From Nitrospirota bacterium (GTDB lineage: Bacteria; Nitrospirota; UBA9217): a stretch of 64,000 nt of DNA. Below are positions 42,536 through 59,727 of the stretch, piece after piece (the first letter of the stretch is position 1; each line of letters begins with the position of its first letter). Below the pieces are notes generated by a model. That model did not search any database, was not told where the DNA came from, and worked only from the letters and a program-made list of their open reading frames with translations. Where the stretch lies: positions 1-64,000 of the forward strand of contig CAWBNQ010000006.1 in assembly GCA_963790205.1 (NCBI GenBank), read 5' to 3'. The position numbers were made by a program, and so were the translations under genes.

Positions 42536-42777
42536 ACCAGCGTCGGTTCGCGCGCTCTACAACAATTCGGCAACGACCTTCTAGTGTCTGGAGTGATGAA
42601 TAAGTTAAATAGTTCGTCACGTATCAACGTTATGTCCCCTATGTTGCATTGCTCCTCGCCATTATCTACTCGGTCGTGCTCACGGCGGCGTTCTTTTTCC
42701 TGACGGGGTATGTGCTGAAGAAGAAGAGGTGTGTGTAGGGAGGATGTGTTGTCGACAGAGATTTGATCGGAGATAAT

Positions 42778-46294: not shown

Positions 46295-46499
46295 GCATTC
46301 CCTGGTATTCGTGACCCTGAGAGCTGTGCCCCGTTGAAGGGAAAGCATAGATAGAAACAACGTTATATATGGATAGAGCATGAGGATCCGAATCATGGGG
46401 TGTCATTGACTAGGGTCAGAATGTCTCTCAGAGTACACGGCGGCGTTCTTCTTCCTGACGGGGTATCTGCTGAAGAAGAAGTATGTGTGGAAATAGTGA

Positions 46500-47849: not shown

Positions 47850-50800
47850 GATAGCCTGAACAACACGATTAATTATACCTATGACTCCGAAGGCAACAAA
47901 CTGACCGAGCAGATCAATGACAGCGCGAACAGTCTCCAGAAGACGCTCAGCTATCAGTACGATGCGCTTGATCGGCTGGCGAAGATCGTGAACCCCGATA
48001 GTACGTTTACGCAGTATACCTATGACGGGACAACGGCCAAAGACCCGAATGGAAACGCGACTACCTACAACTATGATGCATTAAGCCGACTGGCTTCGGT
48101 CATCCAGCCCGGAACTGTTACGACAACTTATGGCTACAACACAAATAATAACCTGATTTCCGTGACGGATGCGAACAACAATACGACCTCGTACAAGTAC
48201 GACGACAAAGGTAGGGTCTATCAAGTCATCTCGCCGGACACAGGAACCACAACTTACCAGTATGATCCAGCTGGAAATCTCACGAGCAAGACGGACGCGA
48301 AGGGAATTACTGTTGCATATACGTATGACGCGGCAAATAGGCTAACGCGAATCCACTTCCCGTCTGATACCGACATTGTTTACGCTTATGATAGCTGCGT
48401 GAACGGCAAAGGCCGTCTTTGCAGCATGACCGACGCGAGCGGCACGACTGCTTACGAATACTCCGCGAAAGGTCAGATCAAAAAAGAAACGCGGGCCATC
48501 GATAGCATTCAATACGTCACCCAATACACCTACGATCAGAACGGCAACTTGAAGACGATAACGTATCCCAGCAGTCGCGTGATCACGTACACCGTGTCGA
48601 ACGATAAAGTGACCGCTGTTCTGAACAACGCCGCGAACCTTGCCACGAATATCAACTATAAACCTTTCGGCGGCGTTTCCTCGCTTACCTATGGCAACAG
48701 CATTGTCGGAACCATCGGCTACGATAACCAGTATCGCGTTACGAGCATCACAGCGGGAACCGTGATGAGTCTCGGCTATCCAACGTATGATGCGAACGGG
48801 AACATCATGGCCATCAACAACGCTCTCGATCCCACTAAGAACAAGTCATTTACTTACGATGCTCTTGATCGTCTCTCGACGGCAACGGCCACCGGCATAT
48901 GGGGCAGTCTCGCCTGGACCTATGACGGAGTTGGAAACAGACAGACGGAGAACGGAAACTCGTACACTTACGTTCCCAGCAGTAATAAGCTAAGCGGCGC
49001 CAATGGCCTGTCTTATGGATTTGATAACGACGGCAATACCACGATAGAAGGCGCACGTCAGTATATCTATAATCAGAACCAAAGATTGATCCAGGTAAAC
49101 AACGGTAGCACCATTGCGTACTACACCTACAATGGCAACGGCCAGCGAGTAAAGAAGAATGTTAATGGCGTAGTAACTATCTTCCATTACAGCCTGAATG
49201 GCCAGATCATTGCCGAATCAGATAGTGCTGGCACTATTACCGCGGAATACGTTTACCTCAATGCCCGTCCGCTCGTAAAGATCGAAGGGCCGAATAACTA
49301 TTATTACATCAATGATAGTCGTGAGCTACCCCCCTTTGTAGTGCCACTTGCAATTAGAGGTTTTGACCGATCTTTGACAATTCTTGCAGCTTGAATTCAG
49401 CAGGCGTCAGGTCGTTTAAAGAGCTGTGGAGACGAACCTGCATGTAATCGACCCGCCAATTCTCGATGATCTTTCGTGCATGATCCAAGCTCATGAACCA
49501 GTTTTCGTTCAGACATTCGTCGCGGAATCTGCCGTTAAAGCTCTCCATGTAGCAATTATCAACCGGCTTGCCCGGACGAATGAACTGTAGCTTGATCCCG
49601 CGCTCATATGCCCACGCATCCAGCGCGTTGCTGATGAACTCAGGGCCATTATCAACAACGATCTGCTCGGGAAGGCCGTGAATTGCCGATATCCGGGTCA
49701 GGACCTGTGCTACCCGCTTACCGCCGATCGATGTATCTACTTCAATCCAGAAACATTCTCTTGTAAACGTATCAATGATCGGAAGCGCCCGAAACCTTCG
49801 CCCGTTATGCAGCGCATCCTGAAGAAAGTCCATGGCCCAGAGTTGATTCGGCCGCTCTGCCTTGGGAAGTTCTATTCGAGCCTGAGCTGCCAGCTCCTTC
49901 ATCCTGGTACGAAGTGCTTCGTCCTTATCCGGTTTCCGTTTGTACCGCAGGGTGTTCCGGCTCAGGTCCACGAGGCGGCTGGCGCGGCGATCACTCAGCC
50001 CAAAGCAGTCTTTGATATAGGCTGCGGCATCCCGCCGTGCCTTGGGCGTTAGAAGTTTTTTGTTACTACCGCTTTCAGTGCCTGGTTATCAAGCGTCAGA
50101 TCGGCTACGATCTGCTTCAAACGTCGGTTCTCGTCCTCGAGCTGCTTGAGGCGCCTCACCTCGCTGACGCCCATGCCGCCGTATTTTGCTTTCCAGTTGT
50201 AATAGGTGGCGTCGCTGAATCCGTATTTGCGGCAGAGCTCGGGGATCTTTATCCCTGCATCTGCCTCTTTTAAAATTTTGACAATCTGCTCCTCCGAGTA
50301 CTTGCCTTGCTTCATCTGGTGCCTCCTTTTCGAGTGAGATATTATGTCACACTCTAATCGGAAATGGCACTATTTTCGGGGGGCAGGTCCGTCGCGCTAC
50401 TCCCCAGAAGATGGTGGACAGCACGGGCACAGTTGTATGGGCTGCTGATTACAAACCTTTCGGCGAAGCGACGATCACTGTGTCAACGATCACAAACAAC
50501 CTCAGATTCCCTGGGCAGTATTATGATGTGGAGACAGGATTGAATTATAATTACTATAGGGACTATAATCCGATGACTGGGCGGTATATAGAGGCGGATC
50601 CGATTGGACTGAAGGGCGGATTAAATCTTTTTGCTTATGCAAAAGGGTCACCGATTAAGTGGGTGGATCCTCGAGGACTTTTATGTGTTCGGATCTGGCG
50701 ATCAGTCACAGGATTTGAATACCACATTTGGGATACTAGGTGGAATAAGGAGGGAGAAACAGTAGTAGATCCGGATTTACATTATGGATATTGCCAATGG

Positions 50801-52340: not shown

Positions 52341-52439
52341 TAAACATAGGGGACATACTATAACGCTCCCGTCAAGTGACAGTTTAGTTTTCATAATTTT
52401 CAATCAGATGGTTTTCTGCGTCGATTGAAGACGCAGCTT

Positions 52440-52670
52440 TCCTCCCGGCATTCCTGCCAGCATCGCTTTGATCGGCGAGTCTCTCGCATCCAGACGAACG
52501 ATAACTCTAATCGTTACAGCCTATTCGGCATGCCGCGCTTTCAGTTTGGCCGCCCAGAATACCTTATCCAGATTCTATCGTTCAAACGAGAGGTCCTGTA
52601 TTGTCCCCACCGAGGTCGTAGCCTCAACGTAGTGTCCCGGGCTCTCTCGCCGAAATTGGTTTTTTACGTT
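52440..52670 (-). ncRNA. putative bridge/seek RNA of the IS110 element
   Basis: Nested stems (CGGCGAG/CTCGCCG, CTCTCG/CGAGAG, GAACGATA/TATCGTTC) and a loop carrying 12-nt and 7-nt matches to the two insertion flanks; boundaries approximate. Confidence 0.7.
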
Positions 52671-52677
52671 TCACGGA

Positions 52678-53985
52678 TCATGCCGCTTTTTTATTCGCGG
52701 CCTCATCCTCCTGTTTGAGATATTTCGGATCAAAGCATTCTTTTTTTTTCATCAGCGTCCAAGCGATAACCAGGAGCTTCGCGGCCAGCTTGACGCGCAT
52801 CTTTGTGACGATGCCTTTCTCCTTTGCCCGGCCCTTGAGCTTGTTCGTAAAGTAGGTGATAAAGTCCTTGTTCTTAAGCGAGGCGATAAATGCCGCCTGA
52901 TACAGTCCGTAGCGGAGATCGGCCTTGCCTTGCTTGGAGATGACCGGTATCGCGCTGGTGGACTTCTTGCCACTTCGATCCGCGCACAGGTCGAGGCCTG
53001 CCATTTTCAATACCTGCTTGGCGCTCGTAAAGCGGCGTGGATTTCCAATGGCCCCAAGCACCTTTGAGGAAACATCCGGTCCGAACCCCGGAATGCTCAG
53101 CAAGTAGGTGTACTCCGGAAATTCCATGCAGGCATCTTCGAGTTTTTCCTCCACCGACTTGATGGTTTGCCTGATCTGCTTCAGGCCGTCCACCATGACT
53201 TGAGCTTCGAAAGACGCCGCTTCTCCCATAGTGCAGCCGATGGAATCAACCGCGGCCCTCCAGATCATTCCCACCCTGCGGCCCTTCGCCAGCGTCATTT
53301 TGCCCGGCGCGACGGTGCGGCAGAAGGCATCGTATTCCATGCCGGCGATCTCCGAGGGGTCAAGACATTCCCTTACCACCGTCAGGGTTTCCGATGGGCC
53401 GTAGTGTTGGTCCAACTCGGGGAAATACTGCGCGATGAGGTGATTGCGAACACATACGCTCATGCCGTGTTCCCTTCTCTTTAAACGCCGTTTGAGTGCG
53501 ATCAGGACGCGCACGTTCCGCAGTGTCATCAGGGGGTATTCGTAAAACAGGCACTTCCCCTGGGCGATAAGATCTGCGACGTTTGCCGCGTCTTTGACGT
53601 CATGTTTGTCCCAGCGGCCGTCCAGAAGCTGCCGGTTGTTCTTGACCGCGACGCCTCCCACGAGAACGACCATGTGCCCGCACTTGATCAGATGCTCCGC
53701 CAGGGGCTTGTGATAGTTCGCCGTCGGCTCGATTCCGAAAACGACCGTGGTCAGGCTATATTGAACTTTGATTCGCTCGACATAGGCGAGCAGCTTTTGA
53801 AAGCCTTCAAGCGTGTTGTCAAAGACCAGATTCTTAACCAGCGTTTTTCCGCGTGCCGTACCGAAAAAAGCGTTGTGCTTCTCCTTGGCCGCGTCAATGC
53901 CGACGATCAAATGCTTTTCCGAACCGCGAATTTCTTTCTTCAGTTGAAGAAACTGCTCAAGTCTGATATCATCTACATAATTCAT
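52678..53985 (-). CDS. IS110-family recombinase/transposase
   Basis: VGIDAAK, GIEPT, KHDVKDA (DEDD); SIPGFG, AGL.....SG serine; ISKQG...LR. Confidence 0.93.
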   Translation of the reverse strand: MNYVDDIRLEQFLQLKKEIRGSEKHLIVGIDAAKEKHNAFFGTARGKTLVKNLVFDNTLEGFQKLLAYVERIKVQYSLTTVVFGIEPTANYHKPLAEHLIKCGHMVVLVGGVAVKNNRQLLDGRWDKHDVKDAANVADLIAQGKCLFYEYPLMTLRNVRVLIALKRRLKRREHGMSVCVRNHLIAQYFPELDQHYGPSETLTVVRECLDPSEIAGMEYDAFCRTVAPGKMTLAKGRRVGMIWRAAVDSIGCTMGEAASFEAQVMVDGLKQIRQTIKSVEEKLEDACMEFPEYTYLLSIPGFGPDVSSKVLGAIGNPRRFTSAKQVLKMAGLDLCADRSGKKSTSAIPVISKQGKADLRYGLYQAAFIASLKNKDFITYFTNKLKGRAKEKGIVTKMRVKLAAKLLVIAWTLMKKKECFDPKYLKQEDEAANKKAA

Positions 53986-54159
53986 AGGAACCTCCTGCCA
54001 CAAGAATTTAGTTTCGCTATAAACTTATTCTTAGCAGGAGGTTTCTATTTTGGGTAGTCTTGAAGATAATTTTCCCTATACTTTAATGGGAGAATCTAAC
54101 CTCATGCTCTACCCATATATAACGTAGTGTCCGAAGTGTACTTTCGGACGAAGTCTAAC

Positions 54160-55264
54160 TAATACAAACGCACTAAGTAATGTTACAAAGTCGCCTGACT
54201 TTGTGCTTTGACCACGAGTCAAGCGTCCTTTGGACCGTTGCCCAGATTGCGTCAAGGTTATCAAACCACCGGTTGGTAGTTGATTCATAGCGAATCTGGC
54301 GCCATATGCGTTCCTGCATATTCAAGGCAGGCTGATATGGTGGTAAGTACACAATCCGGAGTCGTTTATGCTTTCTGAGAAACTCCCGGATTGGGTCACC
54401 CCTATGCCAACGAGCTCGGTCAACATACAGCCAGATAGTGTAGCCACGAAGCTGGCTATAAAGGTGCCGCAGCACTTTGAGAAAACCTTCTCGGTTGCCA
54501 CGTTCCGTTTGGATGACGCCGGCACGAGCCAGAAGAGGAGCCACCCAGCCGGAAACATTCAAACGTTTCTGATGCTGGCTGGTTGTCGGCACTTTCAACC
54601 GTTTCCCGATGAGCGCCCAGCCGCGGCCAAGCCGAGGGTGCAGAGTAAAACCGCATTCGTCCTGAAAAACCACAGTTTCTTTAGGACCCAGCGTTTTGAG
54701 TTTTTTTTAGGCTCCTGGCAAACTTCTTCGCGTCTTCTGCCTTTGCCTGGAGATAAACGTGATTGGCTCGCTTTAACCGATACCCAAGTTGATGCATCCA
54801 GTATTGGGCCTGACGGACTTTCAGCTTTATCCCGAACTGGCGCTGTAAATGAGTTGCCAAAGTGGGGCCATCCCATCGAATACGATTTAAGCCGAACTTC
54901 TGGGGCGATTCCTCCAGTTGAAGCTCTAGCTGAGCTACGATCTTAGGAGTCATCCGAACTGGACGGCCTGACTGCTTTTTCGGGACAAGGGCTTCTACTC
55001 CGTCCTTGTTTACCGCCCGCGTCCAGCGGTTTACGTTCATCCGGGTCTGGCCTAGGACTTCTGAGATCCACCCCGGTCGTTGACCCTCCATTACCAAGAG
55101 GAGGGTAGCTATCTTTATGCCGATCCAAGCTCCTGGCACCTTCTCTGCGAGGGCCAGCAATTGCTCTTTGGACACCTTTATTGGGCTTGCAGGGGATGTT
55201 TTCATGCCCCCAGAATAACATAAAGTATGGTTAAAGTGTAACAATATTTACTGCGTTTGTATTA
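54160..55264 (-). mobile_element. IS630-family element with split (frameshifted) transposase, TA target
   Basis: 27-bp TIRs TAATACAAACGCACTAAGTAATGTTAC / GTAACAATATTTACTGCGTTTGTATTA; orfA 54681-55205 (HTH), orfB from 54173 (FQDE, DRARWH, LPPYQPALNMQERIW); A8 run at the overlap. Confidence 0.9.
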
Positions 55265-55279
55265 ATTGGAGAATATCGC

Positions 55280-56830
55280 GTGCCTTATTGTCCAAATCCG
55301 GAGTGCCCGTTCAGAAAACGCTTCGGCGAATCCGCCGAGTACAACCAGGGCACGGCCACGTGTTCTGATTGCGGCACGGCGCTTGTAGCCGATGATCCGC
55401 TCGGGAGGACGGTCAAGCAGAAGAAGGAATTCAGGATGCGCGATGTCCATAAACGCCTCCTGTGGACGCTGGCTCTCCTGGGCTTCTGGACCATCGTGCG
55501 CCATTTTCCCCTGCCGGGCCTCGAGGGTGAAGGCCTGATGCGATGGGCGGCATTGGCGGGGAACCTGGGTCTTCGTGTTTCTCTATTCTCTTTAGGCCTC
55601 ATGCCATACATCACTGCCTGCGTTATCGTTGAGGTCGCCGCATTGCTCGTGCCCCCGTTCAAACAATGGCGTTCCAAGGGCGGGGCGCCTGGTAGAGCGC
55701 GGCTTACACGGGCCGCGATTTTTTTAACTGTTGTGATCGGGATCGTCCACGGCCGCGCTCTCGTTTGGCAATTAGGCAGTATGGCCGATGGTCACGTGCT
55801 TGTTGACAACGGGACGGCATTCAAGTCGCTCCTCGTCCTGACGCTCGTTGCCGCGATGTTTTTTATCATCTGGATAGCCGGTCAGATATCTACACGGGGG
55901 TGCGGTCACGGAATCAGCTTGATACTACTGTCCGGTATGGTGGGAGGGATCCCGCACGACTTCGTGAATGCCCTGCACCTCTACAAGAAAGCGCTTTCCT
56001 CCCCTCAATTTATCATGCCAATGGTGGCGCTTGCCGGCGCGATCATGCTGATAGTCTATATAGAGAGAAGCACCAGGCAAGTTCCGATACGGTATGCCGA
56101 CGGTACGGAGACAACGTTTCCCATTAAACTGACCACTGCCGGAACAACACCGGTTTCGTGGGCGTATTCACTTCTCGTGATCCCCATTTTATTCGTGCCT
56201 TTCAATGTAGCCATTAATGCGGCAACCCGTCCTGTTTCGGCCTGGATCACAGGACATCTCTATCAGGGCTCGCCTGTACACACCGCGGCGAGCGCCATCC
56301 TGATCTTTGTCCTTTACTTTGTTTTTTCGGCCCTGTTCCACAATCCGCGCGAGATGCTCGACTATCTCAGAGAAAGAAATGCATCCGTTCTTCCGGACGA
56401 GACAGAAGGAAAACGGGATATCTACCGGGGATTGGAAGGCATGGCATTTATCGGCAGCTTGTATCTGGTCCTCGTGTTTTTGTCGCTTCAGGTTATCTGG
56501 TGGCTGTTGCAGACGGAGGTCACCCCGGTCAACGGGGTCTCGTTGATCGTAGCAGTATGCATAGCGCTCGATCTGACCGGCGAACTGCTTTTCCGATGGC
56601 GCTCGGACAGCCTTGTACGCATTGCGGAATTCCACGAACCCTGGAAAGCCGGCCTGCTTCGCTCTCTTTTGGAAAAAGAAAAGGTACCCTGTATCGTACG
56701 GGGATATTATCACCGGTCCCTTCTGTATCTATTCGGCCCCTACATAGAGATGCCCGTTCTTGTCGCAGGAAGCAATGAAAACGCCGCGCGGGACGTAATG
56801 AGAAAATACATTGGATCATCTCCTTCTTGA
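55280..56830 (+). CDS. divergent SecY paralog with N-terminal Zn-ribbon and C-terminal DUF2007-like domain
   Basis: Colinear SecY motifs FPLPG, SLFSLGLMPYITA, WIAGQISTRGCGHGISLI, ERSTRQVPIRYA, PIKLTTAGTTP, NPREM, GVSLIVAV; CPNPEC..CSDC at the N-terminus; AGLLRSLLEKEKVPCIVRG at the C-terminus. Confidence 0.8.
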   Translation: MPYCPNPECPFRKRFGESAEYNQGTATCSDCGTALVADDPLGRTVKQKKEFRMRDVHKRLLWTLALLGFWTIVRHFPLPGLEGEGLMRWAALAGNLGLRVSLFSLGLMPYITACVIVEVAALLVPPFKQWRSKGGAPGRARLTRAAIFLTVVIGIVHGRALVWQLGSMADGHVLVDNGTAFKSLLVLTLVAAMFFIIWIAGQISTRGCGHGISLILLSGMVGGIPHDFVNALHLYKKALSSPQFIMPMVALAGAIMLIVYIERSTRQVPIRYADGTETTFPIKLTTAGTTPVSWAYSLLVIPILFVPFNVAINAATRPVSAWITGHLYQGSPVHTAASAILIFVLYFVFSALFHNPREMLDYLRERNASVLPDETEGKRDIYRGLEGMAFIGSLYLVLVFLSLQVIWWLLQTEVTPVNGVSLIVAVCIALDLTGELLFRWRSDSLVRIAEFHEPWKAGLLRSLLEKEKVPCIVRGYYHRSLLYLFGPYIEMPVLVAGSNENAARDVMRKYIGSSPS

Positions 56831-59545: not shown

Positions 59546-59727
59546 TTCGTGGAAGCATTCGAGGGACGTTGTGTCCGAAAGTGACTTTATTGTCCAAATC
59601 CGGAGTGCCCGTTCAGAAGACGCTTTGGCGAGTCCGCCGGCTCTTGACATGGTTTCCTACAGGACTTTTAGGAGTTCATCTCACGGCCTGATATTTTTTT
59701 ATTCAATTATCAAATGAGGAGCCGACC

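Follow-up and report, generated by a model that had tools for sequence, protein, structure and literature searches.

The window analysed here, a 64,000-nucleotide stretch of a Nitrospirota genome, carries an intact 1.8-kb IS110-family element that works like IS621, by a class of mechanism already known. Very probably, a bridge RNA of about 180 nt from the right end of the element guides its DEDD/serine recombinase to the GT of GGACACTAC-GT-CCCC, likely a TIRtron terminal inverted repeat. The boundaries, the core, the covariation between guides and targets, the stems of the RNA, and one donor and one handshake covariation are shown by the sequences. The element comprises 1767 bp between two copies of a GT core, and its immediate surroundings are as follows:

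52355..54121 (minus strand): complete IS110-family element, in 4 full genomic copies with shared ends and differing flanks; limits taken from empty sites
53986..54121 (minus strand): left end with two hairpins (fold z -6.73), the second of which pairs the Shine-Dalgarno sequence
52678..53985 (minus strand): recombinase gene, 435 aa (Pfam PF01548 and PF02371; D31/E86/D129/D132 and S338 by alignment to IS621)
52349..52354 (plus strand): outer part of the targeted repeat, with the right target at 52349-52352 and a core copy at 52353-52354
54122..54157 (plus strand): inner part of the targeted terminal-repeat remnant, with a core copy at 54122-54123, the left target at 54124-54132 and further repeat up to the IS630 end
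54158..55263 (approximate, minus strand): unrelated IS630-family element in the repeat remnant beside the IS110 element (Pfam DDE_3 and HTH; multi-copy ends)

Three of the four full copies are 99.8-100% identical and the fourth is 90.6% identical; they occupy different sites with similar junction sequences, and a recent multi-copy spread is apparent from them. The divergent copy (G000:C5:353150-355962) has a one-base guide change and lies about 30 nt outside a Y1-transposase element that has its own, different terminal repeats. Non-coding sequence makes up 323 bp at the right end, where a reading from sequence alone had given 320 bp, and 136 bp at the left end. The left-end hairpin may influence translation; a long hairpin covering the Shine-Dalgarno sequence (53986-54050) is kept in homologs, as judged by eye, and a lone copy of it lies at G000:C3:438253-438308. 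The longest perfect inverted match between the ends is 5 bp here and at most 6 bp in 78 of 84 elements, measured in windows 2-3 nt off the final ends, and the element ends bear no sub-terminal inverted repeats of the 7-17 bp IS1111 type.

The neighbourhood is rich in insertions. The IS630-family element has two reading frames and at least 11 related genomic copies. Between 47988 and 52363, an IS3-like element (49354-50315) interrupts a YD/RHS-repeat gene, and a second YD fragment, truncated, ends at the targeted repeat. On the other side (55280-56830) lies a gene whose SecY-like product has a DUF2007 domain at its C terminus; part of the start of this gene is duplicated near 59580-59650, beside an empty copy of the repeat.

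The recombinase has the length that the sequence-only reading had assigned to it (435 aa, against an estimate of about 435) and both IS110 domains: the DEDD RuvC-like domain and the serine-bearing Tnp domain characteristic of the family. D31, E86, D129, D132 and S338 are invariant or nearly so in 55 homologs. A structure model (pLDDT 85) has IS621 as its best fold match, with ISCro4 also close, at about 21% identity and with an added helical region. The nearest annotated plasmid-borne relatives are IS110 elements of Bacillota and Alphaproteobacteria (26-30%). For comparative purposes we assembled 155 loci: 71 genomic loci, the best 80 of 240 metagenomic loci and the 4 own copies. Named homologs, 51-98% identical, are mostly from Nitrospirota and Desulfobacterota, and a single genome (G711) carries about 24 of the fetched copies. 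In three loci (L063, L049 and L070), element ends or Y1 elements occur within recombinase genes, giving nested, rearranged copies.

At all junctions the left side reads ...GT-TAT-AT... and the right side ...AT-GT..., an invariance that is partly built in because the junctions were located by pattern. These letters allow several parses, and it is the empty sites that settle the core. In locus L049, a Y1 gene is bordered on one side by an intact repeat and on the other by the inverted copy of that repeat, which holds the element; GT occurs once in the intact form. Paralogous intact copies of the repeat are also present in L119, L138, L068 and L073. Empty sites in G711 comprise 17 of the GT form and none of the TAT form. 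The GT-form target was found at 33 sites in 19 of 101 genomes, with 1 site for the reversed control; TAT-type target patterns occurred in 1 of 401 and 2 of 301 genomes, which is not above controls. All searches for TAT-type empty sites taken together gave 4/61, 1/401, 2/5, 0/5 and 2/301 genomes and 23 viral matches, none of them with a Y1 gene (L190-L191 by eye). On these comparisons the core is GT, a short core common to target and donor.

The empty sites thus place the element at 52355-54121 and its target at GGACACTAC-GT-CCCC. Since just one GT separates the left from the right target in them, base 12 of the left guide and base 7 of the right guide correspond to the element's own termini and not to the target. 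The sequence-only reading had taken TAT as the core, together with a palindromic target, GGACA-N8-TGTCC, and a circle junction, GTTATAG-TAT-ATATGGG. Both are artefacts of a shifted parse: the palindrome arises only with the wrong core and has 2 unrelated occurrences in the genome, and the junction is off by the same register shift. Nor is the GGGGACA repeat that it had singled out enriched in the genome (488 seen, 515 expected).

A TAT (or AT) core with a 12-nt left guide, a 7-nt right guide and the palindromic target does fit the single locus of the window, and sites reading GT-TAT-GT exist at window position 42629 and in L164 and L096; we nevertheless hold this register to be very improbable. 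The empty sites of G711 (0 against 17) and the control-level counts in 401 and 301 genomes argue against it, as does the 12th guide base, which varies (T in 83, G in 24 and A in 12 of 119 loci) while the flank base is constant. Furthermore, the promoter spacing and the likeness to the IS621 donor described below arise only with GT. An AT core, tried separately, would bring with it a handshake of unusual length (4 nt) and leave no right donor guide; the empty sites overturned it. Three further features of the window relate to the GT-core target:

42621..42645 (plus strand): target repeat with a 3-bp remnant, GT-TAT-GT, at 42629-42635; matches the joined flanks of the C5:354321 copy exactly from end to end
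46354..46386 (plus strand): remnant of a left junction with about 20 bp of left end
59562..59576 (plus strand): unoccupied copy of the target repeat with 2 mismatches; the gene-start sequence that comes after it is that of the occupied site

The first of these is likely the scar of a former copy of the element. Sites resembling the target in which two GT cores enclose nothing but TAT, likely scars of 3 bp, are seen at 42629-42635 of the window, at L164:1-30 and near position 2490 of L096. Elsewhere in the genome (G000:C3, about 423310-423360), a mini-element consists of 21 bp of left end between two GTs, with intact target flanks; this mini-element and the remnant at 46354-46386 could be half-match products.

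With the GT core in place, the target loop of the RNA is read as follows:

52627..52637 (minus strand): left target guide (9 nt) and core GU, identical to 54122-54132; covaries with the flank
52612..52625 (minus strand): inner stem-loop of the target loop, invariant in the aligned RNAs, with a compensatory GAGA/UCUC in L055, L058 and L119
52601..52608 (minus strand): right target guide (4 nt and core AC, 52603-52608) and putative handshake position(s) 52601-52602; covariation at +1 to +5

By analogy with the layout of IS621, positions 52601-52602 may act in the handshake. The matches on which the sequence-only reading was built are exact: 54121-54132 recurs letter for letter at 52626-52637, and the reverse complement of 52349-52355 stands at 52602-52608. 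The GAGG/CCUC hairpin that it placed between the guides is kept in all 54 aligned RNAs. The hairpin was located by pattern in 119 of the 155 loci. Counting over distinct guide types, the left guide matches its cognate flank at 5.20 of 7 positions (shuffled, 2.56 +/- 0.21; 33 guide types from 89 usable loci of the 155), and the right guide at 4.13 of 5 (shuffled, 1.73 +/- 0.26; 21 types from 97 loci, 5 loci with an odd loop length being left out). None of 20,000 shuffles scored as high for either guide. Covariation of guides and targets across homologs, proposed at the outset as a check, is thus borne out on both sides. What survives of the earlier claim is an RNA-guided recombinase whose target loop can be read and which is directed to a repeat; the core, the target sequence, the circle junction and the nature of the repeat had to be revised. 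As for the long left guide, all 9 bases match here, and yet in an ungapped comparison across the 33 types identity falls to 0.35 at -8 and 0.19 at -9, so that a long left guide is not established family-wide. Across the family, the sequences suggest a left guide of about 7 bases plus core, as in IS621. In the C5:354321 copy the left guide matches at only 6 of 9 positions. Locus L055 (1433-1544) has an additional hairpin with a target loop only and a different guide, upstream of the full RNA.

Target guides are part of a larger predicted RNA, which also contains a putative donor loop:

52472..52653 (minus strand): predicted bridge RNA, made of a closing stem, a target hairpin and a donor hairpin; 97.5% of cells paired in 54 RNAs
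52559..52567 (minus strand): predicted left donor guide, with two extra bases relative to the right end of the element; its variable base tracks donor -3
52512..52517 (minus strand): right donor guide (3 nt and core AC) and handshake base 52512, complementary to target -1
52370..52375 (minus strand): predicted -35 box; joining the ends via GT would bring it to 17 nt from a TATATA -10 box (54116-54121)

In an alignment of 54 RNAs, whose related members are not independent, 12 of 34 pairs are changed on both sides, with 147 double-change cells against 42 after shuffling; slid controls reach 36-46%. The structure was drawn from the window sequence together with the alignment. The multi-stem fold noted earlier does not stand out in a single sequence, where the whole end gives a z of -1.59 that is not significant alone, and its support comes from covariation. 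No Rfam family matches the right-end RNA. The RNA model matches only downstream of the gene in 4 of 4 copies, and among the 150 of 905 candidates that were scored there is no orphan copy of the RNA in the genome beyond the 4 elements.

The donor loop was missed by the sequence-only reading and appears in the second hairpin once the GT register is used. This hairpin has the guide layout of IS621 as given by the authors' design code (PMC11208160, supplementary file 7), in which GT is an accepted core: its left strand resembles the right end of the element, and its right strand carries 3 bases of the left end, 2 core bases and the handshake base. In 72 of 74 distinct RNAs the variable base of the left donor guide is the same as donor -3, one miss being a pattern error and the other (L050) a true mismatch; on a quick tree of 51 proteins this covariation amounts to only 3 changes, to which L058 adds a third state. 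The remaining donor-guide positions are invariant. The donor-loop handshake base and target -1 are complementary in 54 of 63 distinct RNAs, including 47 of 47 for C, the other 9 of 63 not being Watson-Crick; a handshake base at the same position is reported for IS621 in PMC11208158. The target-loop handshake may extend to donor -3, where a complementary C is present in 19 of 35 G-type and 0 of 27 T-type elements, a possibility that is confounded by clade and is absent in L058.

Could the matches have arisen by chance, or as remnants of captured flanks, with no RNA function? The weak single-sequence fold and the lack of an Rfam family are what one would then expect to see; however, covariation on both sides, dozens of independent guide types and their constant place in a conserved scaffold speak to the contrary, and we regard this explanation as exceedingly improbable and already refuted as far as sequence allows. 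A more substantial alternative, although still quite unlikely in our view, is an organization of the seekRNA type, in which the RNA doing most of the work is only a shorter one with the target loop, the protein chiefly reads the ends, and the second hairpin serves as a scaffold or represents a minor form. Short RNAs with the target loop alone predominate in the published accounts of ISEc11 (PMC11187229) and CazIS110-1 (10.1101/2025.10.25.684509), the donor guides are mostly invariant here, and L055 bears an extra hairpin with a target loop only. Against this, the second hairpin shows strong compensatory change, bases within it covary with donor -3 and with target -1, and CazIS110-1 is described as needing the full-length RNA (10.1101/2025.10.25.684509). 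The seekRNA-type alternative concerns processing and can coexist with the bridge-RNA explanation.

Under the bridge-RNA explanation, transposition may be envisaged in five steps. The ends would first join via one GT core, creating a donor, ATAGTAT-GT-TATAT, together with a -35/-10 promoter. The target loop would then pair with both target strands, for which covariation is observed, and the donor loop with the circle junction, where one base covaries and the rest are invariant. Top strands would be cut beside the core and exchanged, driven by the handshake bases, of which that of the donor loop covaries; the chemistry of cleavage and exchange is taken from IS621 (PMC11208158). The expected product has GT on both sides, as is observed. 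Circle formation, the junction promoter, RNA binding, cleavage and strand exchange are all modelled here on IS621. Whether IS110 elements excise by cut-out or copy-out is debated in the field (10.1101/2025.10.25.684509, 10.64898/2026.08.31.748434, PMC13626964). The predicted donor is identical to that of IS621 at 11 of 14 positions. Joining the ends via GT in silico puts TTGACG exactly 17 nt before TATATA, so the circle junction may form a promoter with a -35 box, a 17-nt spacer and a -10 box; TTGAC lies at the same distance in 101 of 106 right ends, the motif being part of the search rule. No circle junction was found in 4 DNA runs of relatives, 238 loci and 401 genomes, data that rarely retain rare circles. 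Fifteen viral matches to the junction were set aside as AT-rich promoter-like sites without a recombinase (the TAT-type control gave 83 matches).

The targeted sequence is indeed a repeat, as had been proposed, although a different one: a GGGGAC-type repeat found at Y1-element ends and in short inverted dimers. The consensus of 29 empty sites in relatives, which 54122..54157 fits, runs about 11 nt beyond the guide. An inverted partner within 150 nt is present at 8 of the 29 sites (7 of them dimers), against 10 of 3000 random windows. Two of the 29 directly precede a Y1 start, 4 have a Y1 match in the locus and about 20 are lone copies. A Y1 gene occurs in the fetched flank of 9 of 67 loci with the guide type of the window, 0 of 52 with other guides (about 24 of these from one genome, and flank lengths differ) and 3 of 36 with an unknown guide; Pfam PF01797 is recognized in 8 of 8 Y1 frames tested. 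By eye, the repeat has a fixed orientation in seven loci, with the Y1 start about 55-110 nt inside, and marks Y1 ends in four more; it stands at both ends of a Y1 gene in L049 only and at one end in about 10 loci. The terminal repeats of TIRtrons have the published consensus GGGGWSAS (PMC3733652, 10.1101/279083), with which the target repeat, reading GGGGACGT, agrees at 6 of 8 positions. From these sequences we infer that the targeted repeat is likely a GGGGAC-type terminal inverted repeat of Y1-transposase elements (TIRtrons).

We may also hypothesize that the mechanism is as described and that the sequence it targets is a generic repeat between genes, or scars of the element itself that have built up, and not the end of a Y1 element. 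Most empty sites are without a nearby Y1 gene, none lies beside the site in the window, and the 7 Y1 genes of this genome carry a different repeat, none having exactly this one. Yet the fixed orientation and spacing relative to Y1 starts in seven loci, the Y1 ends in four, the presence at both ends in L049, the inverted dimers and the likeness to the published TIR motif all point to a TIRtron end, and we consider a generic repeat unlikely. Near-matches to the target in this genome (8 sites with at most 2 mismatches) are not commoner than in shuffles. An attC site was also considered as target for the window element and was rejected, as no attC structure is seen by eye around the site. A lineage in G711 (L006-L033, L192-L208) is reprogrammed to the middle of a degenerate repeat of about 105 bp, attC-like in its CAAC...GTTG-like ends and same-orientation clusters (12 of 17 under a loose rule), with similar sequences in G000 (C8, C14); no integron integrase for the G711 repeat was found over the cut-off.

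Among known systems, IS621 and ISCro4/IS622 (PMC11208160, PMC11208158; PDB 8wt6-9, 9t56) are the closest in organization: a RuvC-like DEDD domain and a serine domain, a target loop followed by a donor loop, a left guide identical to the top strand and a complementary right guide, a 2-nt core, a handshake base after the core, a donor identical at 11 of 14 positions and a target repeat tied to a Y1 transposase (REP in the case of IS621). In contrast to IS621, the window protein is about 100 aa longer, the core is GT and the target repeat is different, while the RNA lies in the right end, has an outer closing stem and no 5' stem-loop, and has two extra bases in the left donor guide. The element thus has the guide order and donor layout of IS621 and no long inverted repeats, and does not have a left-end RNA. 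The RNA of the IS110 group usually lies at the left end, with published exceptions (PMC11208160, PMC11187229), and both sources note IS110-group elements with a downstream non-coding region and transposases of 395-455 aa. The IS110-group elements described in PMC11187229 share with ours the lack of long sub-terminal inverted repeats, a 3' non-coding region and a long variable region between the coiled-coil helices.

Members of the IS1111 group (IS4321/IS5075, ISPa11, ISKpn4) also carry their RNA downstream of the gene, but differ from the window element in having sub-terminal repeats of 7-17 bp, the opposite guide order and a shorter protein (330-350 aa against 435). Contrary to the earlier statement, IS1111 seekRNAs do not share this guide order, which PMC11187229 gives as reversed in that group. 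Lacking long sub-terminal repeats and having an IS110-type guide order and a long protein, the element does not belong to the IS1111 group. ISPa11 targets REP sequences, ISKpn4 attC sites, and IS4321/IS5075 are described as targeting Tn21 terminal repeats, a precedent for an element being directed to the terminal repeats of a different mobile element. CazIS110-1, likened here by its description (10.1101/2025.10.25.684509), shares a two-loop RNA of about 170 nt and a natural multi-copy state. TIRtrons (TIRYT, TnpA-Y1 subclass 2.1), as presented in PMC3733652 and 10.1101/279083, share with the Y1 elements found here a Y1 core with a C-terminal HTH and flanking repeats that start GGGG(A/T)(C/G) and also occur as dimers; the window target differs in reading GGGGACGT and not GGGGWSAS. 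In the open-access literature surveyed, we found no description of the guides, core and target of this long IS110 clade, and no report of IS110 targeting of TIRtron repeats, including the available parts of 10.64898/2026.08.14.744561, 10.1101/2025.05.14.653916 and 10.1101/2024.06.21.599552. No named ISfinder relative appears in the portion of the PMC11208160 supplement consulted; a member may be named in ISfinder, in subscription papers, in bioRxiv supplements or elsewhere in that supplement, such as its Supplementary Table 5.

As the class of mechanism is established, the finding does not change the field; what it offers is of practical and comparative use. In a clade distant from IS621, all four guides and a handshake base are legible, and the 33 left-guide and 21 right-guide types amount to a natural record of reprogramming. 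Bridge editors gain sequence space from a core that is natively GT, and TIRtron terminal repeats join the mobile-element landmarks that IS110 elements likely exploit. The case also illustrates that, without empty sites, one locus by itself misleads as to both core and target. Tentatively, and with more doubt than conviction, we may go further and suggest an unstudied clade of long IS110 recombinases that keeps the donor and handshake geometry of IS621 at about 21% identity and combines it with a right-end RNA, a GT core and parasitism of TIRtron ends, plus a handshake of the target loop that reaches donor -3/-4 over a bulge, additional loops for the target alone (as in L055), and mini-elements of 3 and 21 bp from half-match recombination. 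If this were true, the long-IS110 clade would represent an orthogonal, naturally diversified scaffold for bridge editing.
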